Source: Escherichia phage EJP2 | Direction: 5' to 3' (one strand) | Sequence record: OQ411014.1 | Length of the DNA stretch: 64,000 bases | Shown: piece by piece, positions 7,232 through 50,039 of the stretch | Layout: every line of letters begins with the position of its first letter | How positions within the stretch are numbered: the stretch's first letter is position 1 | Translations under genes and position numbers: made by a program | The notes under the pieces: generated by a model | What the model was told of the DNA's origin: nothing | Seen by the model: only the letters and a program-made list of their open reading frames with translations | Databases searched by the model: none

Positions 7232-7233
7232 CT

Positions 7234-7602
7234 ATGTATGAAGATTACAAAGTAGTACTGGAACCTAAACATCTTGTAAAAATAAAACAAATTTATAAAA
7301 GAGCACATGAGTCCAATGAACCACATTCTTACATTGTAAATAACACAATGTTTTATCTGTGTAAGGGTTTTGCAACAATGACTCGTTCTGGTGGTAATTT
7401 TTATGTAATTTCACAAATGCATAATGACCACATAGAAATCTTCAAAATGAGTTCAATGGGAAAAATTACACATAGCCATACACTCAAATATTGTAATGAT
7501 GAAGACTATTTGTTTCAACTTTCCCTTGTGTGTGATTTTGATTTGACATTAGACGATATGAATCTTATGATTGGTATCCGAGACAATATAGTAAAGGAAT
7601 AA
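7234..7602 (+). CDS. hypothetical protein (122 aa)
   Basis: ORF track. Confidence 0.5.
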   Translation: MYEDYKVVLEPKHLVKIKQIYKRAHESNEPHSYIVNNTMFYLCKGFATMTRSGGNFYVISQMHNDHIEIFKMSSMGKITHSHTLKYCNDEDYLFQLSLVCDFDLTLDDMNLMIGIRDNIVKE

Positions 7603-7603
7603 A

Positions 7604-7816
7604 ATGAAATACCTAATAAAAGAAGTGTTTGCATTTCTGTATGTGTTGCTGTTGAGTATAGGCTCAATTACGTTAGCTCTTACTCCTTCAATTGTGTACC
7701 AATTCATTTGTGTATCAAATGATTATAACTTCGATGAAACGATCCATTTCACATTACGTGTTTTTGGCTTCATTGTGTGGTTATGTGCATTTAGTTATTT
7801 TATGAACAGGAAATAA
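7604..7816 (+). CDS. small membrane protein (70 aa)
   Basis: ORF track; hydrophobic segments. Confidence 0.5.
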   Translation: MKYLIKEVFAFLYVLLLSIGSITLALTPSIVYQFICVSNDYNFDETIHFTLRVFGFIVWLCAFSYFMNRK

Positions 7817-7817
7817 T

Positions 7818-8117
7818 ATGAACAAGCACGAAGTAATTATCTTTGACCGGAAAGTATTCGTACCAACCGAGAACAGTACTGAATCGTACTATCTCATCAA
7901 TGAGATCATGTCCGCAACTAGTACTAGCTGTGAGCAGAAACCAGGTGAGTACATCTTCAGTCAGACCATTGGGTATTATCGTTACAAAGAAAAAGAACAT
8001 TTTGACATTGATTCTGAAAAAATCATTGCAGTACTGAAAGAATGTGGCTATAATGAATGTATTGAAAACGACACTACCTTACCAGTTGTCGTGTTTACAC
8101 TAAACCCAACCATCTAG
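7818..8117 (+). CDS. hypothetical protein (99 aa)
   Basis: ORF track. Confidence 0.5.
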   Translation: MNKHEVIIFDRKVFVPTENSTESYYLINEIMSATSTSCEQKPGEYIFSQTIGYYRYKEKEHFDIDSEKIIAVLKECGYNECIENDTTLPVVVFTLNPTI

Positions 8118-8126
8118 GATAACATT

Positions 8127-8405
8127 ATGCATTTCGAAAAATTCAACGCAAACCGTAACACACGTATTGAAATGTTGTTTGAAACTCAAGATACTATCAG
8201 TATTTGTACTAAGAGTGGTGATGTTTACCATGAATGTACTATTGAGTGGGAACAAGGCCGAACACGTTCTGTTGAGTTTGACAACTACCATTTCAAACAA
8301 GGCGACCGCAAGATCTGGCCTGAACTGGTAGAAAGCATTGCATATGAAGATGAAGATAAAGAATCTTTTATCAAAGAAAATCCAGAAAATGATGAAGATT
8401 TTTGA
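8127..8405 (+). CDS. hypothetical protein (92 aa)
   Basis: ORF track; TAGGA RBS. Confidence 0.5.
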   Translation: MHFEKFNANRNTRIEMLFETQDTISICTKSGDVYHECTIEWEQGRTRSVEFDNYHFKQGDRKIWPELVESIAYEDEDKESFIKENPENDEDF

Positions 8406-8431
8406 GCATTTTGAAGAAAATGTGATATAAT
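8402..8431 (+). promoter_or_regulatory. extended -10 promoter (TTGAGC N18 TGTGATATAAT) upstream of tRNA pair
   Basis: Second copy of TGTGATATAATATAA block. Confidence 0.5.
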
Positions 8432-8485
8432 ATAATTAAGAAAGGGACAACATGATGTTCTTTTCTTGTTAATAAATAGAATACA

Positions 8486-8576
<91 letters not shown>

Positions 8577-8689
8577 GTTTTCAAAAGGTAGCCGAAAGGC
8601 AAGTTTATAGGATTTACGGATAGTTATAAATCTGAATTGACAGCAACTCCTAACAGAGTTACTATCCGCTCCTATCTTTTCTTAATCCA

Positions 8690-8764
8690 CGGGGTATAGC
8701 TTAATGGATAAAGCAGTAACCTTCTAAGTTATTGATCTAAGTTCGATTCTTAGTATCCCGACCA
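8690..8764 (+). tRNA. tRNA-Arg (anticodon UCU)
   Basis: Acceptor CGGGGTA/TATCCCG, anticodon stem GTAAC/GTTAT loop CTTCTAA, T-loop GTTCGATTC, encoded CCA. Confidence 0.75.
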
Positions 8765-8779
8765 AATAAGAGACACAAC

Positions 8780-9286
8780 ATGAACTCCAGAATCTATAAA
8801 GAACTAACTAATATAATGTATGAATTTATGGATTTTGAAGTCCAGCTTGGTGTCATATGGGGTCACACCCAACCCCGTGCCACAGATTTGTTTGAAAACT
8901 GTGGCTATTTTGTTTCTGATTGGTCATGGTATGATGGTCACATTGTATCATTACTTTCTAAACAGTACCCAAATATTGAAATTGACTACGCTGCTTGTGC
9001 TGATTCTTATACATTTAGCAGTACTGAATTTCCTGGTTTGGCAATATGTATAGAAGAAGTTCCTAAGATAAGGACAGAGCCATCAGATCATATCTTTAAT
9101 AGAGTTCCAATTTATAAGGTACTTGAAAATAGGTCAGAAGAAGTACGTATTACTAATCCAACTCCAGAGTTCAGTGAGTTCGTACAAGAATTATGTCAGT
9201 GGGTGATGACATTTGACAAGTCAGAAGAACTTGATTATACTGTCAGTATATATGTACAAGAAAACATTGAGGTCACTGAACTATGA
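8780..9286 (+). CDS. hypothetical protein (168 aa)
   Basis: ORF track. Confidence 0.5.
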   Translation: MNSRIYKELTNIMYEFMDFEVQLGVIWGHTQPRATDLFENCGYFVSDWSWYDGHIVSLLSKQYPNIEIDYAACADSYTFSSTEFPGLAICIEEVPKIRTEPSDHIFNRVPIYKVLENRSEEVRITNPTPEFSEFVQELCQWVMTFDKSEELDYTVSIYVQENIEVTEL

Positions 9287-9720
9287 TCAATTATGAAGCA
9301 GTACTGAAATCATTTATACACTGGTTGAACGACGATATCGTATACAAAACCATTGTGCGTACTAGAAATGATGAATACATTCCTATTCAGTATTTGGATA
9401 AGAATGAAGATATCTTCTTAGATAATGAAAACCTACATTACAGTTATCAACACTGGGAATTGAACACAACTACCCAAGCTGAAAGCCTGACTTCGTACTT
9501 TGGTATTGATATAAATCGTGATGGTTCTATTGTTATATTATATAATCCATCAGGAAGTGTACGTGATAAAACTCCACCTGCACGATTTAATATTAGTACT
9601 ACAGAAGAGGAATTATTCCAACTTAGTACTATCCAAGAGGATTATGACGTAACGATGGAAGTACTGAAAGAGTTTGCTAAACTGCACGAGAAATATTTTG
9701 GGAACCTAGACGATGTGTAA
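9283..9720 (+). CDS. FFQ-motif family protein
   Basis: ORF track; C-terminal TTEEELFQLST. Confidence 0.55.
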   Translation: MINYEAVLKSFIHWLNDDIVYKTIVRTRNDEYIPIQYLDKNEDIFLDNENLHYSYQHWELNTTTQAESLTSYFGIDINRDGSIVILYNPSGSVRDKTPPARFNISTTEEELFQLSTIQEDYDVTMEVLKEFAKLHEKYFGNLDDV

Positions 9721-10159
9721 TAGATATAACATAAAGATGATCCAACGTGGATTTGATGTGTTTAAAAATATCATTGCAGCTTATAGGTTCTTGATGGAAG
9801 TTGATAATCTTTCTGAACTTGACTTATGTAATGATTTCTGTATAATTGATGATGCTGGTAATCGCAATACTGCATCAGCCACTATAGACGATGATAGAAT
9901 AATTTTCTCATTTGACGCTGCTGGTGTTATAGTTGATAACAATGAACTGATTTACACGGAATGTCTATATGATGATTCTGGACATAAAATCAAGTTCATC
10001 GTGAAGAATCCGAAATTCATTGTAAATGAAGAAACATTCTTCCAAGCGAGTATGTTGTATGATTTGTCTGATGTGAAAAGTTACGAATGGTTTGTAACTA
10101 TTATGCAAACATATGATTTCGTTATGGATTTCATGAAAATGGATTTTGAACAATACTAG
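9713..10159 (+). CDS. FFQ-motif family protein (tandem paralog)
   Basis: ORF track; C-terminal VNEETFFQASMLYDLSDV nearly identical to next gene. Confidence 0.55.
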   Translation: MCNRYNIKMIQRGFDVFKNIIAAYRFLMEVDNLSELDLCNDFCIIDDAGNRNTASATIDDDRIIFSFDAAGVIVDNNELIYTECLYDDSGHKIKFIVKNPKFIVNEETFFQASMLYDLSDVKSYEWFVTIMQTYDFVMDFMKMDFEQY

Positions 10160-10167
10160 GACTTAAA

Positions 10168-10572
10168 ATGATTGATCTTCAGAAACTGCTAATGGTTCAG
10201 TATGGTTTTGATGTGTTGTCGAGTAGTGATTTATCGAACGTGAATTTGAAAGATTTTGAATTCATTATCAGAGATGCAAACAATAACAGTACTGATGCTT
10301 ATGCGTCAATTCATAACGAAAGCGTTGATTTCACATTCAATGATTGTTCTGTGTATGTTGATGCTACAGAAATCGAAATCGTTTACCGTGTATATAGTGA
10401 AAACTACGCGGACGATATCGAATATATCCTTTGTATTGAAAATCCAACTTATATAGTGAATGAAGAAACTTTCTTCCAGGCTAGTACACTTCAAGATTTA
10501 TCAGAAGTTCCTGGGTATGAGTGGATTGTTTCTATTATGCAAATGTACAAAAATATTATTACTAAGGTATAA
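10168..10572 (+). CDS. FFQ-motif family protein (tandem paralog)
   Basis: ORF track; C-terminal VNEETFFQASTLQDLSEV; TAGGA RBS. Confidence 0.55.
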   Translation: MIDLQKLLMVQYGFDVLSSSDLSNVNLKDFEFIIRDANNNSTDAYASIHNESVDFTFNDCSVYVDATEIEIVYRVYSENYADDIEYILCIENPTYIVNEETFFQASTLQDLSEVPGYEWIVSIMQMYKNIITKV

Positions 10573-10573
10573 T

Positions 10574-11092
10574 ATGAAAGAGCTTATTGAACGTGTAGAT
10601 TTCTTTGAACTGATTGCATTGGAATTTGATCCAGAATGTACTGATATTCTTTCAGATGTACCAATCTTCCCTATTGAAAACGATGATGGTACTTCATCGT
10701 ACTTAGAAGATTACGAAGATTATTTGCGTAGCTTCTGTCCAACATCAAACGATAAAGTGCATCTCTTTACTGAAATTATTCATGTACAATACAATACAAA
10801 TAATAAAGAAATTGTATTATGTGCAATGGATACATTCAACAGTACTGAAGCTGGTATTGCACGTGAGTATGCTAAACTATATCTCATTGATACAGGTGAG
10901 TATTGTAAACTTACCATCAAGGAAAATTCATTTATATTCAATAACAAAGAATATAAGCTAGGTACTACTGAAGAAGAGAACTTCCAGATTTCATGTACTG
11001 ACATGGGTTACTTCAATAATGTAGTAAATGAAGTAAAGAAATTTATTCTTCAAGATATTGACAAGAATGGATTACCTGAGTATAATAAATAA
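10574..11092 (+). CDS. FFQ-motif family protein
   Basis: ORF track 10460..11092 trimmed to ATG after TAAGGT RBS (track start overlaps upstream gene by >100 nt); motif TTEEENFQISC. Confidence 0.5.
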   Translation: MKELIERVDFFELIALEFDPECTDILSDVPIFPIENDDGTSSYLEDYEDYLRSFCPTSNDKVHLFTEIIHVQYNTNNKEIVLCAMDTFNSTEAGIAREYAKLYLIDTGEYCKLTIKENSFIFNNKEYKLGTTEEENFQISCTDMGYFNNVVNEVKKFILQDIDKNGLPEYNK

Positions 11093-11101
11093 CAGAATTA
11101 C

Positions 11102-11191
11102 AGAAGGTTGGCAGAGCGGCTAAATGCACTCGCCTACTAAGCGAGCACTCGCTCCGGCGAGTCGAGGGTTCGAATCCCCCACCTTCTGCCA
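11102..11191 (+). tRNA. type II tRNA with unusual anticodon loop (apparent anticodon ACU; identity uncertain)
   Basis: Acceptor AGAAGGT/ACCTTCT, T-loop GGTTCGAATCC, long variable arm, encoded CCA; anticodon stem CTCGC/GCGAG with loop CTACTAA. Confidence 0.6.
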
Positions 11192-11204
11192 TATTAGGAT
11201 TTCA

Positions 11205-11594
11205 ATGATGACAATGCATGTGTACGATGAGTATGAAGAACGTATAAAACATGAAATCCAAAGTTATTTGGATGGTGTCAATAAAAAATTGAAATACAGT
11301 TCGGGTAAACGTTTTCAATCATTCACCCTAGAATACATGGATTGTGATGATTATAAACAACGCAGAATAACTATAAAAATTGCAGTTGATCCGAAGTTTA
11401 GTTGTGTGCATTCATCTTTACAGATAGATTCCACTTTTGGTGAAGATGAAGATCAATACTGGAGTGGTTTTTCCTATATACCAGAAAGTGAAGAAAAGCA
11501 CTTTCAAGAAACGTTACTCAATAAACAGATTTTAAGCTGGGATTTATTGCAGTACTTGATTGTTTTCTTCACTAAAATGCAAAATAAAGATTGA
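11205..11594 (+). CDS. FFQ-motif family protein
   Basis: ORF track 11124..11594 trimmed because track start lies inside the tRNA; ATG after AGGAT RBS; motif SEEKHFQETL. Confidence 0.5.
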   Translation: MMTMHVYDEYEERIKHEIQSYLDGVNKKLKYSSGKRFQSFTLEYMDCDDYKQRRITIKIAVDPKFSCVHSSLQIDSTFGEDEDQYWSGFSYIPESEEKHFQETLLNKQILSWDLLQYLIVFFTKMQNKD

Positions 11595-11641
11595 CTGTAC
11601 TGTAATGAACTAGTATTATATTACTTAGAGGATATAAAAAC

Positions 11642-12001
11642 ATGGCAGTTCAGGATTTTTCAAAATATGAAAAGTTTCTTAGAACATTTTTGAATTCCAA
11701 ATTAACATCTTACGATGCAGCACATAGTGAAGATAAACCAGCACGTCGCATTGTAAATGAAAATCAAGATTCATTTATTATTACTAATGATGAAATTATT
11801 TTTGAATCATTTGAAGATATAAAAAGACCTGCAAAACCAACTTTACAAGATATCGTAAATAGCTTAAATGCTAGATACATTACCTTTCAGTTGTGTAATG
11901 ATGAAGAAGATGAATTTCAGAAAAGTACAGTATATGAGAATATCTTTCCACATGAATTAAATTCTGTTATACTTGATATACTGAATAGTACTGAACAGTA
12001 G
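11642..12001 (+). CDS. FFQ-motif family protein
   Basis: ORF track; RBS AGAGGA; promoter TTGACT N17 TATTAT upstream; motif EEDEFQKST. Confidence 0.55.
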   Translation: MAVQDFSKYEKFLRTFLNSKLTSYDAAHSEDKPARRIVNENQDSFIITNDEIIFESFEDIKRPAKPTLQDIVNSLNARYITFQLCNDEEDEFQKSTVYENIFPHELNSVILDILNSTEQ

Positions 12002-12028
12002 ATATCAGTACTGATAAAAGGGTAACAC

Positions 12029-12238
12029 ATGAAAGCACGAGAACTTGCTAAAATTCTGATGGATAATCCCGAAGCTGAAGTTGTTTTGAATGATAATGAA
12101 TCAAATTATCAATTTTCACATATTGCCTGTACTGAAACTTTTTATAAAGATTCGTATGCTGAATCTTGGCAAAACGATGATAACAAAACTATTTCAGAAA
12201 ATGAAAAATTCAAAGTTGATGTAATAGTTTTGTACTGA
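12029..12238 (+). CDS. small protein, MKxxELxxIL N-terminal family
   Basis: ORF track; N-terminus MKARELAKILMDNPEAEVV shared with 13494, 14536 and 16293 genes. Confidence 0.5.
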   Translation: MKARELAKILMDNPEAEVVLNDNESNYQFSHIACTETFYKDSYAESWQNDDNKTISENEKFKVDVIVLY

Positions 12239-12445
12239 TATAATGAATTCCACAATCAGACGTATATGGTGTAAGTTACGTCGATGTAATCCAGAACAAG
12301 ATCTCTGGTACTCTAGGAAGTGGTGAATGTTAACCTAGACGGGTTTGATAATTGGACGATAGGCAATTATTACTTGACTAGCAGGTTTAAACTAGAGGTG
12401 ACAGTCCTTCACCAAACTGGAAAACCGGATGGACTTTTTAATTTA

Positions 12446-12540
<95 letters not shown>

Positions 12541-12607
12541 TATTGTTCCGAAAAGAATCGAGTTCTAAGATTTGTGATAACTTGTCTTAGTATAAGATTT
12601 TGTGTAA

Positions 12608-12686
<79 letters not shown>

Positions 12687-12695
12687 TCCAAATTC

Positions 12696-12769
12696 GGCCC
12701 TTTAGCTCAGTTGGTTAGAGCAGAGAACTCATAATTCTTTGGTCACTGGTTCGAGTCCAGTAGGGGCCA
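12696..12769 (+). tRNA. tRNA-Met (anticodon CAU; could equally be a lysidine-modified tRNA-Ile)
   Basis: Acceptor GGCCCTT/AGGGGCC, D-arm AGCTCAGTTGGTTAGAGC, anticodon loop CTCATAA, T-loop GGTTCGAGTCC; CCA not encoded. Confidence 0.8.
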
Positions 12770-13255: not shown

Positions 13256-13507
13256 ATGTTATCAGTATATGTTGTAATATCAATGTCGATTGTCATTTCA
13301 CTTATTCTCATGGTTATCATTTACGATACACTGGTAACACTTAACATCGTTGATGGTACACGTATCAGTACTGGACTATTCGGTTGGCATGTGTTAGCAT
13401 TCATGCTTTCATTTCTACCATTTATCAATCTAGTATGGTTGATGGTTATTATCGTCCATATCCGAAACATGCGTAAAGACACTGGGAAATCAAATGAAAA
13501 AGAATGA
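13256..13507 (+). CDS. small membrane protein (83 aa)
   Basis: ORF track; hydrophobic. Confidence 0.5.
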   Translation: MLSVYVVISMSIVISLILMVIIYDTLVTLNIVDGTRISTGLFGWHVLAFMLSFLPFINLVWLMVIIVHIRNMRKDTGKSNEKE

Positions 13508-13895
13508 CTTGATCAAAATGCTCCAAGAGATTGACGGCAATCCAGAGATTGTTATTTGGAATGGCTATGTCGATGATTATATGAACATCGAAAAAGGCTT
13601 GACTAAAATCACTCTAGTCAAAGAAACTGAACAGTTCCTTCTGAACGCATTAGAACACGAATGGTGCGAACGTAACAAGACATTCGACATACCAGAAGAC
13701 CAACGAACTAAGATTGCTGAACGGGCAAAAGAACTTCATAAGAAACGTGAATACGATTTCCAGAACCCATATGTTACTGAAGAAGAATTCAATCACTGGT
13801 ACGGAAAGAAAAAGTTGACAAAGTATGTCCTTTCACCTAAACTACGTGGTAAGACTTCACTTGGTGTATTCAACGCTTCTGACTTGGACTACTAA
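13494..13895 (+). CDS. MKxxDLxxML N-terminal family protein (133 aa)
   Basis: ORF track; N-terminus MKKNDLIKMLQEIDGNPEIVIW. Confidence 0.5.
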   Translation: MKKNDLIKMLQEIDGNPEIVIWNGYVDDYMNIEKGLTKITLVKETEQFLLNALEHEWCERNKTFDIPEDQRTKIAERAKELHKKREYDFQNPYVTEEEFNHWYGKKKLTKYVLSPKLRGKTSLGVFNASDLDY

Positions 13896-13906
13896 GGAAA
13901 AATAAA

Positions 13907-14227
13907 ATGATGTGGTATTCTAACGTACCGTGTGAACCTAAATATATTCAGATTTCACATAATGCACTGAAAGCGTTCTGTGATAATTGCAGTACTAAAG
14001 ATTATCACTTCGAAGACTTCAGAACGTTGATTTATGACCATCACTGTCAGCCAGCAACCAAAGATGGTATGTTTGTAATTGAACAATTCTTTCATGGTAA
14101 AGTATTGCAAATTGTTGCTGATTATCTGAAAGCAATGGGATATATTATCAAAGATGATTATCTTGATTTGGAAGGTGAATGCATTGTTGATGGTTATGAT
14201 GGTGTACTGATGAATTGGACATGGTGA
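13907..14227 (+). CDS. hypothetical protein (106 aa)
   Basis: ORF track; TAAGGAA RBS. Confidence 0.5.
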   Translation: MMWYSNVPCEPKYIQISHNALKAFCDNCSTKDYHFEDFRTLIYDHHCQPATKDGMFVIEQFFHGKVLQIVADYLKAMGYIIKDDYLDLEGECIVDGYDGVLMNWTW

Positions 14228-14231
14228 TGAA

Positions 14232-14534
14232 ATGATTGCAACAATGATGATTGTACTTATCCCAATAGTACTAGTAATTCTAGTTACTTCATATGGTGCA
14301 ACCACAACTATTGAAGATCTAAAAACACATTACGCTATCGTCTTTAGTGAAGCACATGAAGACTTTGGTACAGTACTGACCGATAAGACTTATATTGCAA
14401 CTAAATGTAAGTACTACCGATTCTGGGAACGTTCTGACAAATACCACTACAGAGATGAGAAAGGCGTGAATCAGTACTTAGACGTACTGGATGCATTCTT
14501 GAAACCTTACTATACAGTAACCGAGGTAAAATAA
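14232..14534 (+). CDS. hypothetical protein with N-terminal hydrophobic segment (100 aa)
   Basis: ORF track. Confidence 0.5.
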   Translation: MIATMMIVLIPIVLVILVTSYGATTTIEDLKTHYAIVFSEAHEDFGTVLTDKTYIATKCKYYRFWERSDKYHYRDEKGVNQYLDVLDAFLKPYYTVTEVK

Positions 14535-14535
14535 C

Positions 14536-14751
14536 GTGAAAGCTAAAGATTTGATTTCAATTTTACAGAAAAACCCAGAAGCAGATATTCTTATTCATGC
14601 TTCGCCTTATGATGACTATGCGATTGGTAGTTGCGAAACTGCTCATTCATATCAAGCAGGGGACACCGCTGTTGAAGAGTCTGGTGAAGATTTTTCGGAT
14701 TCATTTGATGAAGATGGAAAACTCTTAGTACCAGTCATCATCCTCTCATAA
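14536..14751 (+). CDS. MKxxDLxxIL N-terminal family protein (71 aa)
   Basis: ORF track (GTG start, GAGGT RBS); N-terminus MKAKDLISILQKNPEADIL. Confidence 0.5.
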   Translation: MKAKDLISILQKNPEADILIHASPYDDYAIGSCETAHSYQAGDTAVEESGEDFSDSFDEDGKLLVPVIILS

Positions 14752-15232: not shown

Positions 15233-15294
15233 GCCGTTTAGCTCAGTTGGTAGAGCAAACACCTAGGTCGTCTGTTCGAGTCAGATAAACTGCA
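15233..15294 (+). pseudogene. tRNA-like element lacking an anticodon arm (degenerate tRNA or tRNA-derived RNA)
   Basis: Canonical D-arm TAGCTCAGTTGGTAGAGC and T-arm GTCTG-TTCGAGT-CAGAT with a 6/7 paired acceptor, but only 13 nt (containing palindrome ACCTAGGT) where the anticodon arm should be. Confidence 0.45.
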
Positions 15295-21036: not shown

Positions 21037-21258
21037 ATGGCTAACGAACTAAACCAAACCGCAGTAATCGCTGACATTTCCGATGTAGAACGTACCATGA
21101 ACTACATTCAATTCCAACTAAGTCAAGCAGATGCTGAATTGGCTACCTTTGCTGGTACAGATGCTAAGAAAATCTGTTATGTTCACCTACTTGCTTGGAA
21201 GCAAGAGCTACAAACTGAACTACATGAACTACGCAAAGCTCTAAAGCGTAAAGCATAA
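21037..21258 (+). CDS. hypothetical protein (73 aa)
   Basis: ORF track; AAAGGA RBS; host-like codon usage. Confidence 0.5.
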   Translation: MANELNQTAVIADISDVERTMNYIQFQLSQADAELATFAGTDAKKICYVHLLAWKQELQTELHELRKALKRKA

Positions 21259-21573: not shown

Positions 21574-22101
21574 ATGTCAATTGAAATGATTTTTCTGTTC
21601 TCATGTTTAGCTTTCCTGGGTGCGTTCATTGTACTGCTAACTATCAGTACTGCGGTAATTGGTTCTAACAAAGCACTTCGTTTGCAATACATGATGAGTG
21701 CTCTGAAGAAAGATAAGAACGTTACTGATATCGTTGAGCATATCTTAGCTAAAGAAGAAGTAGGTCTTCTTGAAGTTTCACTATCTGGTAATCGCTTACG
21801 TTTTTATGAAGTAGGTGAAGTTCCAAATGATGGTCTTTCCTGGAGCAACCGTAACTCACATAGTGTTTCTATTTGGATTGGTAATCGTTATTCTAACTAT
21901 GGTTATATCGAGAAGTACTATTCCGAAGATGATTCACAGTTCGACGGTAAGTGTCCAGCATATAAGACTTGGTTGAAACTGATTGCACTTGAACAAAGGA
22001 TTGCAAACAAAGAAACTGGTATCAATACCGACAAGACCAAAGCTAAGAAAGAAACTACTTACAAAGCTGAAAAGAACAAAGTAACAGAAATCGAATTATA
22101 A
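21574..22101 (+). CDS. membrane-anchored protein (175 aa)
   Basis: ORF track; N-terminal transmembrane segment. Confidence 0.55.
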   Translation: MSIEMIFLFSCLAFLGAFIVLLTISTAVIGSNKALRLQYMMSALKKDKNVTDIVEHILAKEEVGLLEVSLSGNRLRFYEVGEVPNDGLSWSNRNSHSVSIWIGNRYSNYGYIEKYYSEDDSQFDGKCPAYKTWLKLIALEQRIANKETGINTDKTKAKKETTYKAEKNKVTEIEL

Positions 22102-26956: not shown

Positions 26957-27754
26957 ATGATTTTTGATAAAGTTAGTTTTCCTGCACATGCCTTCACTCA
27001 TGCGATTGTAGAAGACACAACTCTGTACGTGTACCTTAGTACTGGTAAGTGTATTGATATTGAATACGATAGCAATGACGCAGCAGAATACGCACTACTA
27101 CGCATTGATGCAGCCGTTTCACAATCCAATCCAGCACAAGAAGTTGTGTACGATGTGAAAGGTAAGATCACTGACATTGTGGGTTCTCTGAAAGAAAAAG
27201 TACTAGACGTTGCTAAAGATAAGGTCAAGAAAACTGCTCAAGAGAAAATCCAAGACACCATTGAAGAACGTGCACAGAAAATGTACGATGACCTACAGAA
27301 TGCACTAACTAACACCAAAGGTGTAGTTCAGAAGGTAGATGATATTTTCAGTACTATCTTTAGTGTTGGTGCACCCACTGAAGAAGAAAAACCTAAAGCA
27401 AAACCAGAAGTGAAACCTTCCCAACCTAAGAAGAAAACATACAAGCATTTTGGTGAAGATTTTTACAGTACTGTAAAAGTAACTGACCAACCGCGTGATC
27501 TAGACGGTCATCAACTACTCAATACTAAAGTATCTGATTTGACCCTGGATGAACTACGTACTGCTGTTGGTTTTGGTATTGATGATGCAATTTCTAACAA
27601 TCCAAATGTTAGTGAAAGTATCAAGATGATTGTGAAAACATTTGGTGCACAAGAAACTGAAGAAGCAATGACTTATCTAAAAGACCTGATTGTGGATTAT
27701 GCACAATCACAACCGAACGCAACCGTTCGACAAGCAATCGCTAAATTCTTGTAA
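26957..27754 (+). CDS. hypothetical protein with K/P/E-rich linker (265 aa)
   Basis: ORF track; TAGGAG RBS. Confidence 0.6.
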   Translation: MIFDKVSFPAHAFTHAIVEDTTLYVYLSTGKCIDIEYDSNDAAEYALLRIDAAVSQSNPAQEVVYDVKGKITDIVGSLKEKVLDVAKDKVKKTAQEKIQDTIEERAQKMYDDLQNALTNTKGVVQKVDDIFSTIFSVGAPTEEEKPKAKPEVKPSQPKKKTYKHFGEDFYSTVKVTDQPRDLDGHQLLNTKVSDLTLDELRTAVGFGIDDAISNNPNVSESIKMIVKTFGAQETEEAMTYLKDLIVDYAQSQPNATVRQAIAKFL

Positions 27755-27786: not shown

Positions 27787-28929
27787 TTAATCTTTTCCAG
27801 CAATTACGATAGAACCAGCAAACCCATCGAGGGCTGTTAGTACTATATCATCTGCGTCATTAACCTGAACCTGAACAGTACAAACTGATGTACCATCATA
27901 TACAGTATATGACATATTGGATTTACCATGTTGTGCTTTGGTAATAGAAGCACTTGAGGAACCATCACCATTTGGTGTCCATGATAGAGCAGAACGGAAT
28001 GGAACACTTTGAGATGTTTTACCAATAATAACAACAACAGCGGCAGACGCAGCACTTTGTGTAACAGTAATGTTACCACTTGCATCTACGTCTACAGTAC
28101 TGAATTGTACTGCGTCATCTTGAGGTTCATGTAACTGAACAACCAGGTCCGCACCACGTCCGTGAATGATAGCAGGAACAGTAGCTTTGTACTGACCATC
28201 TGATTGTATTGCAAAATCAGCAGGAGCAATGTTGATTGAAGTTACATAGTCAGAATCAGCACCATCTGCATATACAGGGAATTGTACTTGAATTTCATTG
28301 TAATTCGGTGAAGTAATTGTTATAGTAGCTGTACCAGTTTGGGAGATAACCACTGGAGAAATACTGAATGTTCCATCTGGATTAACAGTACCTTCATATT
28401 CAGAACCATCTGGTAGAACAATTTTAACAACCATATCAGTAACGTCTAGAGCACCCGAACTAGAGGTGATAGCACCACTAATTTCAGTATCATTAACGTG
28501 AACTGGATTGATTACGATGTTGTCAATATCTGGTAGAGGGATAGTACATGTAGGTGTGTACATATCATAAAGCGTTTTACCAGTACTGAGAATTATTTTG
28601 TTCAATAGGAAACGAATGACGAAACCTTCCTTGGTCTTTTGATCATTGTAACCCCTTACAAAGAAGGTATTGCGTGGAATCTTAGCCAAGATTTGATCGT
28701 TATTTTCTAGATAATCCAGAACTCTACCCTCGGTGTCATAACCAGTGAGTAGTACTTTTTGATAAATTGTGTTTGTCGCAGGATCAATAAGGTCGAACAT
28801 TACATCAGAACGTTGTTTGTATATACGTAACATCTTTTTCTTTGTAAAGTCTCGCAGATATGCCCCATCAACTACAAATCCACAAACCCCATAAGGATAA
28901 TCCCCAACCCCAGCTATCGGTTTAGCCAT
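27787..28929 (-). CDS. Ig-like domain protein (possible virion decoration or adhesin)
   Basis: ORF track 27787..29025 trimmed to ATG (MAKPIAG) preceded by AAGGAG RBS; S/T/V/G-rich beta-sandwich-like repeats. Confidence 0.55.
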   Translation of the reverse strand: MAKPIAGVGDYPYGVCGFVVDGAYLRDFTKKKMLRIYKQRSDVMFDLIDPATNTIYQKVLLTGYDTEGRVLDYLENNDQILAKIPRNTFFVRGYNDQKTKEGFVIRFLLNKIILSTGKTLYDMYTPTCTIPLPDIDNIVINPVHVNDTEISGAITSSSGALDVTDMVVKIVLPDGSEYEGTVNPDGTFSISPVVISQTGTATITITSPNYNEIQVQFPVYADGADSDYVTSINIAPADFAIQSDGQYKATVPAIIHGRGADLVVQLHEPQDDAVQFSTVDVDASGNITVTQSAASAAVVVIIGKTSQSVPFRSALSWTPNGDGSSSASITKAQHGKSNMSYTVYDGTSVCTVQVQVNDADDIVLTALDGFAGSIVIAGKD

Positions 28930-29049
28930 AGATAAACTCCTTTTTTTGTTTTTCATTATGAACGTATTTACCCCTTGACATGTGATTATGCTTGTATTAT
29001 GATACATGCATTGATTGACGCACATGTAATAAAGAACATTAAATGTGTG

Positions 29050-29078
29050 TTGACAGTACTGAATGACTGCTCTATAAT
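29050..29078 (+). promoter_or_regulatory. sigma70-type promoter TTGACA N17 TATAAT
   Basis: Canonical hexamers; CAGTACTG abuts -35. Confidence 0.55.
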
Positions 29079-29123: not shown

Positions 29124-29702
29124 ATGACTACTCGCTTAAAAATCGTTGACAACAAAATGTCCATCAGCCTGTTCAAAGACGAAGCTGATTCTTACATGGC
29201 TAAAGCAATGGCTAAATCACAGCGTTATAACAACATGCTGAATGGTCGTAAAGCTCCTTACGGTCAGAACCACCCACACAGCCACTACGTTGGTATGGTT
29301 GCTGAACACGCTACTTTAGTACTGATGGAAGAAATCGAACAGCTTCTGAACATTGATATGAAAATCGATGCAGTGTTCCTGGACGACAAGCGTGACAAAG
29401 AATGTGATATCGTTGTGAATGGTCTGCGTATTGAAGTAAAATGCATCAAGTACGGTTCATGGGTAAAATTCGGCCCTTGCATTACTGCCGCTCAACGTAA
29501 GAACATTGAACGCAAAGCTGATGTAGTACTGTGGGCTGTATACAACGAACGTAAACAATCCTTTACGTTTGAAGGTTTCAACCGTGTAGAAGACATTGCT
29601 AACATCCCAACTGAAATGACTGGTGTCCAAGGTCGTGAGAAGATCGAAAACCATCCAGTAATGAGTATCATCAAACCTTTACAGGAGATGCAATTTTGCT
29701 AA
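29124..29702 (+). CDS. hypothetical protein (192 aa), host-optimal codon usage
   Basis: ORF track; TAAGGAA RBS; CTG/CGT/GGT/AAC-rich codon usage unlike neighbours. Confidence 0.6.
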   Translation: MTTRLKIVDNKMSISLFKDEADSYMAKAMAKSQRYNNMLNGRKAPYGQNHPHSHYVGMVAEHATLVLMEEIEQLLNIDMKIDAVFLDDKRDKECDIVVNGLRIEVKCIKYGSWVKFGPCITAAQRKNIERKADVVLWAVYNERKQSFTFEGFNRVEDIANIPTEMTGVQGREKIENHPVMSIIKPLQEMQFC

Positions 29703-33758: not shown

Positions 33759-34751
33759 ATGACTGTAAAACAACTCAATCTAGAATCTATTCAAGACGAT
33801 ATCATGGATGAATGTTTTGTAAATGAAAACAATACGTTCGAGCGTATTAGTGAACAGTCACATGACAGTACTGAAGAAGTAGAAGAAAGTACTGATGACG
33901 TAGGTTCTTTCAAGACTTACAACACATCTAGCGTTTTACCAGAAGGTGAGACGAATGAATCTATTATTCGTTTAATCCGTGACGGTATCAATGTGAAGCG
34001 TAACATTGACCTTATCGTACGTAACAACGTAGGCTTAGTATATAGCCAAGCACGTCAGTGTACTTGTAATATCCCATTCCAAGATAAAGCACAGTACGCT
34101 TTTGAAGGTCTAATGCGTGCAATCCATCGTTATGATGTGAATCAGAATATTCTTTTCAGTACTTACGCTACTGTGTCTATTCGCCAAACACTCTATAACT
34201 TTGGTAATGATGAAGTTCGTCTAATCAGTATTCCACGTCACTTGTCAGTGGATAACATCAAGATTCAGAACTACATTGAGAAGCATCGTTCTAAGTTCGG
34301 TCGTACCCCAAGTGAAGATGAAATCAGTACTGCTACTGGCATCAAGTTATCCGCAGTGAAACGTGTAGTGCAGTACATGAACAGTAAGCCAATGAGTTTC
34401 GATACTCCAATGGGTTCTGACAGTACTGAAAACGATATGAGCTTAGTGGATGTAATCCCAGGAACTTCCAATGATTACACACTAAGTGCAGATACAGTTC
34501 AGAAAGCACCACTAGATGTAATTGCATTGGTCATGTCTGAACTACCAGAAGAAGAGCAGTTGCTGATCAATAAGATTCACGGCTTGAATGGACATGAAGA
34601 AAGTACTTTTATTGCTCTAGAGACTGCTGGATTGGTAGATGCGAAGGGTAAGAAGCTAACTAACCGTTGCACTATTCATCGTCGTTACAATGCAATACTG
34701 GATAAGATTCGTAATATTCTAAAAGCACGTGACATTTCATTCGATGACTGA
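33759..34751 (+). CDS. RNA polymerase sigma factor, sigma70 family
   Basis: Region 2 match VGLVYSQARQ..FEGLMRAIHRYD..FSTYATVSIRQT and C-terminal region-4-like helix-turn-helix; AAGGAG RBS. Confidence 0.7.
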   Translation: MTVKQLNLESIQDDIMDECFVNENNTFERISEQSHDSTEEVEESTDDVGSFKTYNTSSVLPEGETNESIIRLIRDGINVKRNIDLIVRNNVGLVYSQARQCTCNIPFQDKAQYAFEGLMRAIHRYDVNQNILFSTYATVSIRQTLYNFGNDEVRLISIPRHLSVDNIKIQNYIEKHRSKFGRTPSEDEISTATGIKLSAVKRVVQYMNSKPMSFDTPMGSDSTENDMSLVDVIPGTSNDYTLSADTVQKAPLDVIALVMSELPEEEQLLINKIHGLNGHEESTFIALETAGLVDAKGKKLTNRCTIHRRYNAILDKIRNILKARDISFDD

Positions 34752-38987: not shown

Positions 38988-39311
38988 ATGAAAGCTCTAC
39001 GTAACATTATCGCTTATGCAGTAATCTCTATGGGTATGACCTTTGCAGCACATGCAAACAGTTCTATCCTATGTGAATCGGAAAATGGCAAACAGCACGT
39101 TATGAAACATAACAGTACTGTTATGACTGTTCACGGTGAAAACTTCAACTTTGAACAAACTGGCACTCTCAAGAGCGGTGCGGATGTATTTGTTTACTGG
39201 AACCAAGAGCGTACTAAACTATTGGCGGTAACTTCTGCTGATAAGCAAACTATTGTTTATCAAATCATGGATAAGCGTCAACGTGTACTTGACATGGGTA
39301 CTTGTAACTAA
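38988..39311 (+). CDS. secreted protein (signal peptide)
   Basis: ORF track; AAGGAA RBS; N-terminus ends AAHA. Confidence 0.55.
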   Translation: MKALRNIIAYAVISMGMTFAAHANSSILCESENGKQHVMKHNSTVMTVHGENFNFEQTGTLKSGADVFVYWNQERTKLLAVTSADKQTIVYQIMDKRQRVLDMGTCN

Positions 39312-42149: not shown

Positions 42150-42785
42150 ATGACTAAACAAGATATTTTCAAAACTGTAATCAATGCTCTTCGGTCTGAA
42201 GAAGTTCGTTGTATGATGGAATACAACATCAATAAAGCCACTGACGCTATCGTTCCTGTTATTGAAGCTGCTGGCCTGGTGTTCGTTGGTATTGGTATGT
42301 ATTCTGTCGTTGTGGAGCATCCTAAGTACCCTGGACGTGTGTTTAAGGTTAGTACTTCACGTTGGGATGGTTTCCGTGAGTACGCTAAGTACTGCAAAGA
42401 TAACAGCAACAAACCATTTGTACCTGCTATCTATAGTGCTGAAGTTAAAGGTAACTTCGCATGGTATGAGATGGACAAATACTTCTCAATCATGAAGGCT
42501 GATGAATCTGATTTCGTAAGCAACAAAGCAGATGAAATGTATTCCTTTGCTAATGCTGGTCAGTACGGTTCATCTCTTCGTGAAGAGATGGATGTACAAC
42601 AGGATCGTATGGATATCTACAACTTCGCTAAGGAGTTAGAAAGTGCATACGGTTCGCGTTTCACGCTGGACATTCACACTGGCAATATCATGATGGATGT
42701 ATTCGGTAACTTCTTTATCACTGACCCACTTGCTGGTGATTTACGCCGCGAGATTCCAGTACTGGAAGAAGATCCAGTATTCTAA
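42150..42785 (+). CDS. protein kinase-like fold protein (211 aa)
   Basis: ORF track; glycine-rich GIGMYSVV, lysine in VFKV, catalytic-loop-like DIHTGNIMMD, DFG-like ITDP. Confidence 0.5.
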   Translation: MTKQDIFKTVINALRSEEVRCMMEYNINKATDAIVPVIEAAGLVFVGIGMYSVVVEHPKYPGRVFKVSTSRWDGFREYAKYCKDNSNKPFVPAIYSAEVKGNFAWYEMDKYFSIMKADESDFVSNKADEMYSFANAGQYGSSLREEMDVQQDRMDIYNFAKELESAYGSRFTLDIHTGNIMMDVFGNFFITDPLAGDLRREIPVLEEDPVF

Positions 42786-44040: not shown

Positions 44041-44073
44041 TGGGTTGACTTAGGTCAGCCCTTTTGTTATAAA
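44041..44073 (+). promoter_or_regulatory. terminator-promoter module (GGGTTGACTTAGGTCAGCCC hairpin, T-run, TATAAA)
   Basis: -35 TTGACT inside hairpin stem, 17 nt spacer, -10 TATAAA. Confidence 0.55.
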
Positions 44074-44120: not shown

Positions 44121-45641
44121 ATGCCAAATGATATGAAACACAAGAATGGTGCATTAGTACAACACTCTGACAAATGGAGTGAAGCTAATCGTCGTAAGAA
44201 TTCACACAACGCAGGCCAAGGATCTCGTGGCTCTCGCAATCAGGGGACTGGTGAAGCTGGTAAAGCTAATACAGTTGCTTCTGGTGGTATGGACACTTCC
44301 AATATGTCTCAACATGAGAAACTAAAGTACTTCAACAGTTTAGGACTCCTAAACCCTACACAGAAGAAGCAATTACAAGACATGGACGCTGCTGCATCTG
44401 CACCAAAAGAACAGCCACAGCAAGCTCCTAAAGCTGCTCCTGCTGGTAATCCTGTCAAAGAGCTATCTGATAACTTAGGTCGTATCTTTGCACAGAAGCC
44501 TAATCTAATTCAAGGTATTGTAAAAGAACTACAAGCAGTACCGAAGGAAGAGCTAAAGAGTAAAGCACAAGCTGTACTTGATGCTATGAAAGGCAATCGC
44601 AGTACTGAACCAACCGAAGTATTCAGTACTATCATGCGTGCACTTCAAGCTAAACCACAAGCTGCTCCAGCACAGAAAGCACCTAAGATGGACAGTGCAC
44701 AGGACATGTCAGATTTGTTTGGTAAAGTTGGTGCTGAAGGTAAGAACAACGCACAACAAGTCAAGAACGTCCAAGCTAAGATTATTGATCGTTTAGGTGA
44801 TAATCAAGACAAGACTAAGCGGGCATTTGACGCATTGAACAAAGCACTTGAATCTTATGTTCCTGGTGAGAAAGACAAGTTCCAGACCATCATGAACGCA
44901 GTCTTTGGTGAAATGAAGAAGTACGAAGCAGAGCACGGTGAGAAGGTATCATCTGATGGCTATATGATTCGTAAAGACGAAGAAGGTGCAGTAGACCAGA
45001 AAGATGCTCCTAAAGAGCAAGAAGACCTACCTGATACAGTTGATATGGATGGTTACATTTCTCGTCCAGATGAATATGACTTCGGTTCAGACAAAGAAGG
45101 TTATGAGTATGCTATGGACATTTATCGTTTCCTAGCTAAGAACTATGATTATGCTAACAAGTACGTAGATCAGTTTGTCAGTGCTTGGGATAATTACAAA
45201 GATAAAGGTTATGACTTCCCTGCGGAAGCTGCATTCTTTGAGTTAGGTAAACTACTCCAGAAAGATGGTGTAGAGATTGGCTCGAAAGAAGATACTTCTA
45301 GTCTAGATGCAGAATTGGCAAAAGACCGTCAAATGACACCAGGTTCTAAAGCTGAATTGAATAAGCTCCTATCATGGATTGTTGACATTGGTAAAAATGC
45401 TGGTAAAGATAACAAGAGTATCAACCGCAGTATTTCTTGGATCAATAATAAAATTGATAACAACGGGCGTAAGCTACAGAAAGCATGGAGTGATTTAGTC
45501 AATGGTGCAGATGAGATCGATATTGATTCTCCTGAAGCATATGAGTATGCGATGACGACTCTAGACAATTCCTTCCAGGACTATGAAAATGGTAATCTAA
45601 CTGCTAGTGAACAAGACATCATGCGTTCACACGGAAAATAA
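44121..45641 (+). CDS. large A/K/Q/P-rich protein (506 aa)
   Basis: ORF track; GGAGAG RBS; low-complexity N-terminal half; host-like codon usage. Confidence 0.65.
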   Translation: MPNDMKHKNGALVQHSDKWSEANRRKNSHNAGQGSRGSRNQGTGEAGKANTVASGGMDTSNMSQHEKLKYFNSLGLLNPTQKKQLQDMDAAASAPKEQPQQAPKAAPAGNPVKELSDNLGRIFAQKPNLIQGIVKELQAVPKEELKSKAQAVLDAMKGNRSTEPTEVFSTIMRALQAKPQAAPAQKAPKMDSAQDMSDLFGKVGAEGKNNAQQVKNVQAKIIDRLGDNQDKTKRAFDALNKALESYVPGEKDKFQTIMNAVFGEMKKYEAEHGEKVSSDGYMIRKDEEGAVDQKDAPKEQEDLPDTVDMDGYISRPDEYDFGSDKEGYEYAMDIYRFLAKNYDYANKYVDQFVSAWDNYKDKGYDFPAEAAFFELGKLLQKDGVEIGSKEDTSSLDAELAKDRQMTPGSKAELNKLLSWIVDIGKNAGKDNKSINRSISWINNKIDNNGRKLQKAWSDLVNGADEIDIDSPEAYEYAMTTLDNSFQDYENGNLTASEQDIMRSHGK

Positions 45642-48860: not shown

Positions 48861-50039
48861 TTATGGTAAATCAAATTCCGTATATGAATATTTGTATACA
48901 CCATCTGGTCCACGACCTGAGTATCGTAATTTACCAGAAGTAGTTATATATGCTGAAGTAATATTACTAGTACTGAATATGTTAAACACTGACTTCATAT
49001 CATTCACTGTACCGTTACCGAATGGTATCAGGTTAAGTTCATTGCCGTTGACACCAGTACTCAATCTTCCTGAAGAATTTGCTCCACAACCATATGCATT
49101 TGATGGGCTAAGAGCAACGTAACCAGTATTACTAGTATAATAACTTAGTAAACCAATAAAATTCTCTGTAGTGGCTATTTCAGTAAAGACTCTAATATTG
49201 ACAGAACTATTCACTCCATTACCTAAGTTTCCAGCATTCTGGCTTCCCGCAGCATATAGATGTGTTTTACCAGTACCGTCACTGTACAATATTGTGAATG
49301 CTGATTCAGTTAGACCAATATCAAAAACACTAAGACCTGGGTCTGGTAGTGGTACTTGTGTTAGCACATTTATTCTTGTATCTGGATGACCAATACCGAG
49401 TTGACCAAATGAGTTTGAACCTGAAACCCAAACACTTAAATCATTTTTTAATATCAGTACTGATGAATTAACAAATTCAACTTTTTGAACATCTGATGTA
49501 AGTTTTGAGAAAGTAGTTAGTGCAAGATAATTACCAGTTGCTAGTTGGCCTTGGTTATTAAAACCGCTTCTATAAAGATCACCATTGTTCATTAATATAT
49601 ATAATGCATATACACCAGCATGAACAGATGTTATTTGATTAAGATTCCCTGTACCTATACCAGCTTCAATAAATGGGGTACAATCAGTATATGATGTCAC
49701 AACTTCAGTAGATGATGTATTGCCAGTTTGAAAGCTACGGCGACCAGTATATAATAATTTTCCATCCATAGTTTTAATGATAACAAAACTTGTGTTTGTA
49801 CACCAAACATCTTGAACATCATCTCTGATTAAAGTCCACTCTAGCTTTTGTTCTGTTGGCTTTCCATCCCCATAGATATAATTATCAACTGTTCCTCCAC
49901 CGATACCATACAATCTGTTATCATCATATAATACCATAAATGCCGGACGAGACGATGCATAAGGTACTAATATTTTTGTAATTTCAGGTAATGAAGGTGC
50001 TTTATTACCATAATTAAGCATTCGTACAAAAGGTAACAT
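48861..50039 (-). CDS. RCC1-like repeat (beta-propeller) protein (392 aa)
   Basis: ORF track; GGAGA RBS on minus strand; repeated G-x-N-x-x-G-Q/N-L-G motifs (GFNNQGQLATG, GSNSFGQLGIG, GSQNAGNLGNG). Confidence 0.65.
   Translation of the reverse strand: MLPFVRMLNYGNKAPSLPEITKILVPYASSRPAFMVLYDDNRLYGIGGGTVDNYIYGDGKPTEQKLEWTLIRDDVQDVWCTNTSFVIIKTMDGKLLYTGRRSFQTGNTSSTEVVTSYTDCTPFIEAGIGTGNLNQITSVHAGVYALYILMNNGDLYRSGFNNQGQLATGNYLALTTFSKLTSDVQKVEFVNSSVLILKNDLSVWVSGSNSFGQLGIGHPDTRINVLTQVPLPDPGLSVFDIGLTESAFTILYSDGTGKTHLYAAGSQNAGNLGNGVNSSVNIRVFTEIATTENFIGLLSYYTSNTGYVALSPSNAYGCGANSSGRLSTGVNGNELNLIPFGNGTVNDMKSVFNIFSTSNITSAYITTSGKLRYSGRGPDGVYKYSYTEFDLP

Follow-up and report, generated by a model that had tools for sequence, protein, structure and literature searches.

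Host-optimal codon islands and opposite leucine codon choices in the jumbo phage EJP2 and its relatives

Introduction

The codon adaptation index (CAI) and the codon bias of highly expressed Escherichia coli genes reportedly go back to Sharp and Li (1987), and the codon usage of early versus late genes of phage T4 is said to have been treated by Cowe and Sharp (1991) and by Kunisawa (1992). Codon heterogeneity within phage genomes is well known, and its bare observation is ordinary. Temporal codon-usage classes have been documented in phages (PMC5683454, PMC12482277), one comparative study of them being that of Mioduser, Goz and Tuller in 2017 (PMC5683454), and in Shigella phage Sf14 phage-encoded transfer RNAs (tRNAs) serve the late genes (PMC12482277). 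Here we analyse a 64,000-nt part of the 349,185-bp contig of Escherichia phage EJP2 (this whole stretch is called the window below), to which the products of 57005-57772 and 29124-29699 belong as exact matches of EJP2 proteins, and in which a sequence-only reading had singled out four genes, at 29124, 44121, 57005 and 21037, as islands of host-optimal codons, selected for very high or very early expression or else acquired from a different source.

The paper describing EJP2 gives 37% GC, 540 open reading frames (ORFs) and 6 tRNAs, and codon usage was not analysed there (PMC10213699). The closest records in the phage collection are the RaK2/121Q-like jumbo phages Turkey5, Hallingskeid, 121Q and PBECO4, with which the window shares a conserved gene order at a median protein identity of merely 42-53%. 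The strongest of the islands encodes a relative of NrdC.10, which in T4 and T2 is a conserved hypothetical early protein with a weak AAA ATPase motif (PMC1524935); in the literature searched we found only this remark on the motif and no description of an NrdC.10 function. T4 NrdC.10 is classed as early at both the RNA and the protein level (PMC9697503, Tables S2-S4), being detected at 1 min in one of three replicates and at 3 min in every one, with a plateau by 5 min. Its label-free quantification (LFQ) value is about 3e7, next to about 4e7 for ModB, 1.2e8 for NrdC.9 and about 7e8 for NrdC.6 (PMC9697503).

We report that the four genes, taken by the earlier reading as one class, fall into two classes with opposite leucine codons. 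Two of them carry the codon profile of the most highly expressed host genes, and this bias probably reflects translational selection that is specific to a stage of infection.

Results

Two genes of the window carry host-optimal codons

29124-29702, plus strand: EJP02_420, a protein of 192 amino acids (aa) in phrog_16175; second host-optimal island, conserved in 71 RaK2-like phage records
57005-57775, plus strand: NrdC.10-type AAA+ ATPase, 256 aa; strongest CTG-class codon island
42150-42785, plus strand: T7 gp0.7-like protein kinase (phrog_15752, E 4e-50); third and weaker CTG-class island

The gene set comprised 146 ORFs called mechanically in the window. CAI weights were taken from 30 E. coli K-12 genes (ribosomal proteins, EF-Tu, EF-G and rpoA; 5,185 codons), and z scores were computed, in simulated and analytical versions, against a null in which the protein sequence is fixed and codons are drawn from window-wide usage. 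The genes surrounding the islands are indeed AT-rich at third positions, as the sequence-only reading had it: GC content at third positions (GC3) is 0.342 +/- 0.064 and CAI 0.381 +/- 0.093 over the 146 ORFs. From this distribution the genes at 29124 and 57005 depart clearly, ranking first and second of 146 by CAI (0.664 and 0.634), with z scores of 8.2 and 11.8 in the amino-acid-preserving simulation, 6.4 and 8.6 analytically, and 3.3 and 4.4 in a robust version based on the median absolute deviation; with leucine left out they are still at the top (z 5.4 and 6.3). Their GC3 is 0.435 and 0.451; CTG accounts for 7/11 and 18/28 of their leucine codons and CTA for none, and AAC for 10/12 and 16/19 of their asparagine codons. 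Both reach the CAI level of the T2 capsid gene gp23, which came out on top (0.682) when the same weights were applied to the whole T2 genome as a control of the method, ahead of gp32 and then vs.6, gp22, rIIB, IPIV and gp45. The kinase gene is third in the window (CAI 0.577, z 4.5-5.4).

The other two named genes do not depart from the distribution by plain CAI: 44121-45641 ranks 33rd (CAI 0.448), with GC3 not raised and AAC at 15/35, and 21037-21258 ranks 76th (CAI 0.383, z 0.0). The richness in CTG ascribed to them is contradicted outright, at 0/31 and 0/9 leucine codons. CGT, GGT and GAA, on which the grouping had also drawn, are majority codons across the whole window (0.49, 0.60 and 0.76) and so have no power to discriminate islands. 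Adapted genes that had gone unnamed are 42150-42785, 21574-22101, 38988-39311 and 33759-34751.

The island genes use CTG, CGT, GGT, AAC, ATC, TTC and TAC, and neither contains a single AGA, AGG, CGA, ATA or CTA. Optimal codons are raised whichever base they end in, the A/T-ending ones to 0.35 (29124) and 0.32 (57005) against 0.24 in the window and the G/C-ending ones to 0.30 and 0.31 against 0.17, and non-optimal G/C-ending codons are lowered to 0.10 and 0.11 against 0.136. This is the profile of the E. coli reference set, unlike that of low-expression E. coli genes (CAI 0.34, non-optimal G/C-ending codons 0.30). Since both optimal classes go up and the non-optimal G/C-ending class goes down, the bias of the islands bears the mark of translational selection rather than of the foreign composition of a GC-rich donor. 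Adaptation lies above the distribution expected from the protein for 29124 and 57005, for 44121 once leucine is left out, and not for 21037.

A second class of adapted genes uses CTA for leucine

44121-45641, plus strand: virion structural protein, orthologue of 121Q gp201 (phrog_20398, E 2e-155); CTA-class
21037-21258, plus strand: small ORF of 73 aa, phrog_15704; most CTA-enriched gene of the window
26957-27754, plus strand: CTA-class gene, CTA in 9/17 leucine codons (p 0.0017)

The genes at 44121 and 21037 are adapted genes of a different, CTA-using class, with CTA at 14/31 and 7/9 of their leucine codons. Plain CAI misleads for late genes of this lineage, as CTA (w = 0.01) dominates the penalty, and a leucine-excluded CAI is needed; by this measure 44121 has a z of 4.0 (rank 5/92) and 21037 a CAI of 0.646, with a z of 2.2 on a mere 72 codons. 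For 26957-27754, the gene in the corresponding place in Hallingskeid and RaK2 carries the annotation virion structural protein (only 22-26% identity), and CTA is also enriched in 48-605 and in the Ig-like virion gene 27787-29025.

The same division runs through the relatives. In Turkey5, of which 98.5% of the genome was covered, the counts of CTA and CTG are 24 and 0 in the capsid gene (of 31 leucine codons), 42 and 0 in the sheath gene (of 60), 15 and 4 in SSB, and 1 and 19 in the ATPase gene; without leucine the capsid gene rises to rank 3/364 (CAI 0.70) and the sheath gene to a z of 9.5. Over 331 Turkey5 genes, the CTA fraction goes up with non-leucine adaptation (rho 0.48, p 2e-20), TTA goes down (-0.56) and CTG hardly follows it (0.12), whereas T2 is conventional (CTG +0.48, CTA -0.17; 17 CTG and 0 CTA in gp23). 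Well-adapted Turkey5 genes mostly (34/41) have a CTG/(CTG+CTA) below 0.4, the ATPase gene being the extreme CTG user. Its CTG:CTA ratio is 18:0 in EJP2, 19:1 in Turkey5, 20:1 in Hallingskeid and 10:0 in 121Q, and every virion gene compared in EJP2, Hallingskeid and 121Q has more CTA than CTG (CTA 6-14, CTG 0-5).

Nine Turkey5 late genes have CTG in frame at only 4/521 leucine codons, with 571 occurrences in frame 2 against a null of 461 +/- 11. Avoidance of CTG as a DNA motif was thereby rejected: the depletion is confined to the codon frame, and what is avoided is the codon. Along the Turkey5 genome, in steps of 10 kb, the CTG share of leucine codons follows the density of sigma70-type promoters (rho 0.70, p 3e-6) and the CTA share runs the other way (-0.42). 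A CUA preference of this kind is not described in the literature searched.

Three further observations touch on these classes. Turkey5 272,728-273,156, 134,671-137,503 and 265,523-266,656 are uncharacterised genes of very high host adaptation with mostly CTG for leucine, and the 141-aa protein at 272,728 has the top CAI of the genome (0.655). Turkey5 late genes also use 180 CAA and 42 CAG, the reverse of the E. coli optimum, which suggests a late regime that is unfavourable to C34 tRNAs (Leu-CAG, Gln-CUG) in general. A phage sigma-factor gene lies in the early region at 33759-34751 (plus strand; Sigma70_r2/r3 domains in orthologues), with a z of 3.1 (4.1 without leucine), 9 CTA and 2 CTG, and is a candidate for controlling the shift to late-class genes.

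The strongest island encodes an NrdC.10-type AAA+ ATPase

The product of 57005-57775 falls in phrog_1250 (E 2e-95) and is matched by T2 nrdC.10 at 39% identity (tblastn, E 1e-53); the NrdC.10 family comprises more than 1,300 phage records. G39, G42, G44 and K45 as well as D93 and D94 are invariant, giving Walker A and B motifs. An alignment-based AlphaFold2 (AF2) model, with a predicted local distance difference test (pLDDT) score of 91.8, has a complete AAA+ module made of an alpha/beta P-loop core and a helical lid. Foldseek aligned it with Aeromonas phage 25 NrdC.10 at a template-modelling (TM) score of 0.95 and with the AAA modules of NorQ, RuvB, DnaA, RFC and dynein at 0.5-0.55; Pfam AAA models scored under their cut-offs on this protein. 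By homology and predicted fold, the product is thus placed in the NrdC.10 family as an AAA+ ATPase.

The bias of this gene is held in common by EJP2 (z 8.6), Turkey5 (9.5), Hallingskeid (7.2) and 121Q (7.7), the 121Q orthologue having 55% identity and a synonymous divergence (Ks) of 1.59, which is saturated. In Turkey5 it ranks second of 362 genes by CAI (0.619), above tail tube (rank 13), major capsid protein (25), SSB (26) and sheath (50).

A reference-free test used the Kullback-Leibler (KL) divergence from locus-average codon usage, with a length-matched null, in 66 loci, 61 of them IMG/VR contigs at 32-68% identity. No gene deviates more than the ATPase homologue in 68% of the loci (6% expected), and in 91% (19% expected) it is one of the three that deviate most; when just genes of 180 codons or more are compared, its effective number of codons (Nc) is the lowest in 34% (11% expected), with a median Nc of 43.1 against 47.2 (p 5e-7). 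NNC is raised in the NNY families in 57/61 loci, and the NNR and four-fold classes move to G/C solely outside enterobacterial phages; since the class shifts differ by host group, the gene follows host-specific optima. T2 nrdC.10 itself is in the upper tier of its genome and not extreme, at rank 10/151 by z (4.0-4.5) and 22/151 by CAI.

The bias at 29124 follows a clade gradient

The phrog_16175 family has E61, D95 and E104-V-K106 invariant, and this E61...D95...E104-x-K106 pattern suggests a possible PD-(D/E)xK nuclease. Against Pfam, PDB and PADLOC profiles the protein had no reliable match, one weak hit to NOV_C aside, and its single-sequence AF2 model was unusable (pLDDT 35).

Codon adaptation in this family is graded by clade. 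EJP2 has a z of 6.4; two metagenomic relatives, of 71% and 67% identity, have 4.5 and 4.1 and are each first in their own locus; Hallingskeid reaches 3.8 (rank 2/72) and a 74% relative 1.5; further out are a 55% relative (2.3), RaK2 (2.0), Turkey5 (1.1) and 121Q (0.2). Adaptation is thus kept in 4/5 of the clade of 67-77% identity, where the gene stands at the top of its locality, and not in 121Q, Turkey5 or RaK2. Promoter strength was rejected as the cause of these differences, every orthologue having a 12/12 sigma70 promoter 27-95 nt upstream. The bias of the kinase gene at 42150 is likewise not shared by its Hallingskeid and 121Q homologues.

Strong sigma70-type promoters and hairpin cassettes

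28975-29078, plus strand: tandem sigma70-type promoters (11/12 and 12/12) upstream of 29124, in a divergent intergenic region
56937-56967, plus strand: hairpin-embedded promoter cassette (GGTTGAC-TTCG-GTCAGCC, T-run, TATTAT), ending 37 nt before the ATPase ATG
39672, 44043, 47094, 53238, 53973, 54804, 56200, 56643 and 56937, plus strand: cassette copies, that of 44121 itself being 44043-44065

The plus strand of the window has 29 sigma70-type sites of at least 11/12 (13 of them perfect) against 1.8 expected, about one per 2 kb and most of them 27-55 nt 5' of a gene start, which marks the whole window as an early region of host RNA polymerase. Turkey5 has 116 such sites, clustered at 0-20 kb and 270-320 kb. 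Genes that come first after a strong promoter are shifted a little towards adaptation (mean z 1.07 vs -0.03, p 0.01).

The ATPase cassette is conserved in Turkey5, 121Q and Hallingskeid, with the -35 element inside the hairpin followed by the T-run and the -10 element, and with compensatory changes in the Hallingskeid stem. A hairpin and a promoter directly ahead make the ATPase gene its own insulated transcription unit; upstream of T2 nrdC.10, too, a terminator is followed by a promoter.

The nine cassette copies (0 expected) are plus-strand elements of about 23-35 nt that consist of GGTTGACTTCGGTCAGCC, a T-run and TATTAT, with the -35 hexamer within the stem. At 56643-56990 two identical copies flank a 294-bp insert with a 43-aa ORF (56702-56833), and the insert is missing between the orthologous Turkey5 genes; it looks like a cassette-mediated insertion just 5' of the ATPase gene.

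Phage tRNAs and the decoding of leucine

682-12769, plus strand: six tRNA genes (Thr-UGU, Ser-UGA, Arg-UCU, Ser-ACU, Ser-GCU, Met-CAU)

The codons ACA, TCA, AGA and AGT, which correspond to phage tRNAs, make up 0.39 across the window but 0.12 and 0.23 in the two islands. For the late class no such correspondence was found: in the EJP2 window and in Turkey5 CUA is not a codon read by a phage tRNA, and Turkey5 has a Leu-UAA tRNA, yet its capsid gene contains no TTA.

Candidates for a tRNA-Leu(UAG) were rejected one after another. The 119-nt 'tRNA-Leu' of Turkey5 in GenBank (L094 38429-38547) is not tRNA-like; an extra Rfam hit at Turkey5 L094 40191-40269 is D-arm-less and Arg(UCU)-like with a long variable region; an extra hit in the window (15233-15294, plus strand) misses its anticodon arm; and the window tRNA at 11102-11188 truly has the anticodon ACU. 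T2 is reported to cleave a host tRNA-Leu, and such T-even cleavage was considered as a reason for the avoidance of CTG; T2 prefers CTG in gp23 and other high-CAI genes, and the idea was dropped as direct support and serves as an analogy only.

The tRNA-like remnants at 15233-15294 and at Turkey5 L094 40191-40269 score above the Rfam gathering threshold and were missed by ARAGORN. The class-II tRNA at 11102-11191 (plus strand; anticodon ACU in the loop CU-ACU-AA) is annotated in 121Q too; its A34 is unusual for a bacterial-type tRNA-Ser, and it overlaps the start of ORF 11124-11594. In the tRNA cluster of Turkey5, a group I intron (95 bits; 288,996-289,309, L094 41397-41710) has tRNA-Ser(GCU) on one side and an HNH homing endonuclease gene on the other.

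Mosaic patches and poorly adapted genes

Two patches of the window, 13494-14751 (compared with 121Q) and 54035-56633 (compared with Turkey5), have 97-100% amino-acid identity and Ks of 0.02-0.2 in a background of about 45-53% median orthologue identity, which indicates recent recombination with Asteriusvirus-type phages of E. coli, as judged from sequence. At the other end of the scale, the minus-strand genes 48861-50039 and 62571-63701 are the least codon-adapted of the window (z -4.0 and -6.4); their counterparts in Turkey5, Hallingskeid and 121Q are annotated as RCC1-like or 'HERC1', and Turkey5 330-346 kb holds a long minus-strand array of paralogous RCC1-like/HERC1-type genes in which TTA makes up 0.46-0.50 of leucine codons.

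Discussion

Stage-specific translational selection, which we consider the probable explanation of the islands, would work as follows. Host RNA polymerase would transcribe the whole window early, and the few genes whose products are needed fast, namely the ATPase and the 29124 protein, with the gp0.7-like kinase as a weaker case, would have been selected to match the unmodified host tRNA pool; these CTG-class genes shun the codons served by the phage's own tRNAs, and their proteins would be made in a rapid early burst. Virion and other late genes, host-adapted at 17 amino acids, take in CTA and leave out CTG for leucine, as if CUG decoding were disfavoured, or CUA decoding favoured, later in infection. 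The selective agent would then be the rate or efficiency of translation on a tRNA pool that changes during infection. The bias was observed directly, and so were its specificity for optimal codons, its conservation, its restriction to in-frame codons and its association with promoter class; the change in the tRNA-Leu pool and the early burst are inferred.

That the island genes are expressed very early, as first proposed, agrees with the way CTG tracks sigma70-promoter density in Turkey5 and with the detection of T4 NrdC.10 at 1-3 min. Earliness alone does not single the islands out, however, since all of the window is early. Judged by the T4 proxy, 'very early' is supported and 'very abundant' is not.

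Several findings weigh against stage-specific selection. The bias of 29124 and 42150 is absent in 121Q and Turkey5 although those orthologues have 12/12 promoters, so that the demand would have to be lineage-specific, an ad hoc assumption. Neither the window nor 346 kb of Turkey5 holds a tRNA-Leu(UAG), and no mechanism by which leucine decoding might change was found; T2, for its part, is reported to cleave a host tRNA-Leu and still uses CTG in gp23. Some well-adapted, CTG-majority genes of Turkey5 (134671, 265523) sit in structural or replication regions. T4 NrdC.10 is modest in abundance, and the more abundant NrdC.6 has a CAI of just 0.27, which makes CAI a poor predictor of abundance among early genes. 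Finally, the gene sets are mechanical ORF calls, and in the 66 loci most neighbours of the ATPase gene are small ORFs that evolve fast, and some of the IMG/VR loci are near-duplicates.

The best surviving rival, although we regard it as improbable, is plain expression level, by which the islands would simply encode the most abundant proteins and neither timing nor a change in the tRNA pool would matter. CAI does follow known abundance in the T2 control, the EJP2 islands equal the CAI of T2 gp23, and each has its own strong promoter. The capsid and sheath proteins of Turkey5, however, are the most abundant by function, and their genes use CTA and exclude CTG, so that abundance alone cannot explain the opposite choice for leucine; T4 NrdC.10, moreover, is just modestly abundant, and CTG use follows promoter class.

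A constraint other than decoding, such as mRNA stability or protection from RNases by dense ribosomes, mRNA structure or motif avoidance, has somewhat less to recommend it and is quite unlikely. In T4-type infections early mRNAs are broken down, optimal codons can make an mRNA more stable, and the ATPase transcript is insulated by its hairpin. Such a constraint sits poorly with a depletion of CTG in late genes that is seen only in the codon frame, the trinucleotide being over-represented out of frame, with a preferred set that equals the translationally optimal set of E. coli family by family, and with the host-dependent change of direction in distant phages.

Slightly less likely again is horizontal acquisition, the alternative offered by the sequence-only reading, in which codon usage would be retained from another donor, whether host or phage. 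The ATPase gene does show signs of movement: otherwise similar E. coli jumbo phages carry alleles of about 88% or about 55% identity, its Ks of 0.34 to Turkey5 and 0.69 to Hallingskeid lies below the saturated background, and it adjoins a mosaic patch of 97-100% identity and is itself flanked by repeated promoter-hairpin cassettes. From these sequence comparisons, exchange of ATPase alleles among jumbo phages is likely. But both alleles are biased, the divergent one of 121Q equally so at saturated Ks, so transfer is not the explanation of the bias, and a low Ks is expected anyway under strong codon selection. No donor-like shift across all codon classes is seen, optimal codons being raised in the A/T- as well as the G/C-ending class and non-optimal G/C-ending ones depleted; the GC3 of the islands (0.44-0.45) is below that of E. 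coli genes, and their profile differs from that of average and of low-expression E. coli genes. In 121Q, Turkey5, Hallingskeid and RaK2 the two genes keep their syntenic positions, and the homologues of both proteins all come from phages or metagenomes, with none cellular. The proposal that a subset of genes is under selection holds up on the same evidence, since the enrichment is specific to host-optimal codons of either ending and recurs in the ATPase gene at saturated Ks and in more than 60 distant loci.

Chance is scarcely credible, as is an artefact of the gene calls, of amino-acid composition or of the reference set, for even though the z scores of the window are over-dispersed (standard deviation about 2), the robust z of 29124 is just 3.3 and ORFs were called mechanically, the scores are conditional on protein sequence, the result is replicated in independent genomes and with a reference-free measure, and the T2 control behaved as expected.

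A bolder extension of stage-specific selection is doubtful: RaK2/121Q-like phages may remodel leucine decoding during infection, so that CTG serves early and CTA late. Host tRNA-Leu(CAG), the main CUG reader, might for example be inactivated or out-competed, or CUA decoding boosted; CTG-rich immediate-early genes, the ATPase gene foremost, would then be translated in a fast burst and shut off automatically, by a codon-encoded translational timer that would also help to silence CUG-rich host mRNAs. The ATPase would in that case be a factor for takeover or anti-defence whose dosage or timing is critical.

The observations have some weight of their own. The NrdC.10-family ATPase gene is under the strongest synonymous selection in genomes of 350 kb and in T4-like neighbourhoods, which makes it a priority for functional work. 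In a phage of E. coli, the late genes with the best adaptation nearly exclude the best leucine codon of the host and use the rarest, with no cognate phage tRNA, and this implies that decoding is altered in the course of infection. The data suggest, for work in phage engineering and heterologous expression, that codon choice encodes timing and not yield alone.

Compared with known systems, the cassettes resemble the PeSL (promoter-early stem-loop) cassettes reportedly described in T4-type phages by Arbiol et al. in 2010, in that a repeated intergenic stem-loop is joined to an early promoter and flanks small variable genes; the EJP2 cassettes differ in having the -35 hexamer inside the stem. The ATPase resembles T4/T2 NrdC.10 as a homologue in sequence and fold with Walker A and B motifs, encoded by an early gene whose promoter is its own and follows a terminator. 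The jumbo-phage proteins are without the N-terminal extension of about 70 aa and cover profile positions 78-326, and their genes are far more codon-adapted than T2 nrdC.10 (CAI 0.62-0.63 vs 0.445), above the capsid gene. With the highly expressed genes of E. coli the islands share the optimal-codon profile of ribosomal-protein and elongation-factor genes, but they are early genes of a phage, with a GC3 of 0.44-0.45 and residual non-optimal codons that end in A or T.

As in systems of the Sf14 kind, the codons of the EJP2 tRNAs are ones that the phage uses often and the host seldom, and the early islands under-use them; unlike there, the key late codon, CUA, is without a phage tRNA in EJP2 or Turkey5. 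Set beside the temporal codon classes already described, both classes here are host-adapted at 17 amino acids and split sharply at leucine, a CTG/CTA split that T2, analysed in the same way, does not have, and the late class prefers the rarest leucine codon of the host without a phage tRNA for it. Within the literature searched, a CTG/CTA switch without a cognate phage tRNA, and an uncharacterised AAA+ ATPase gene as the most host-adapted gene, appear to be new.

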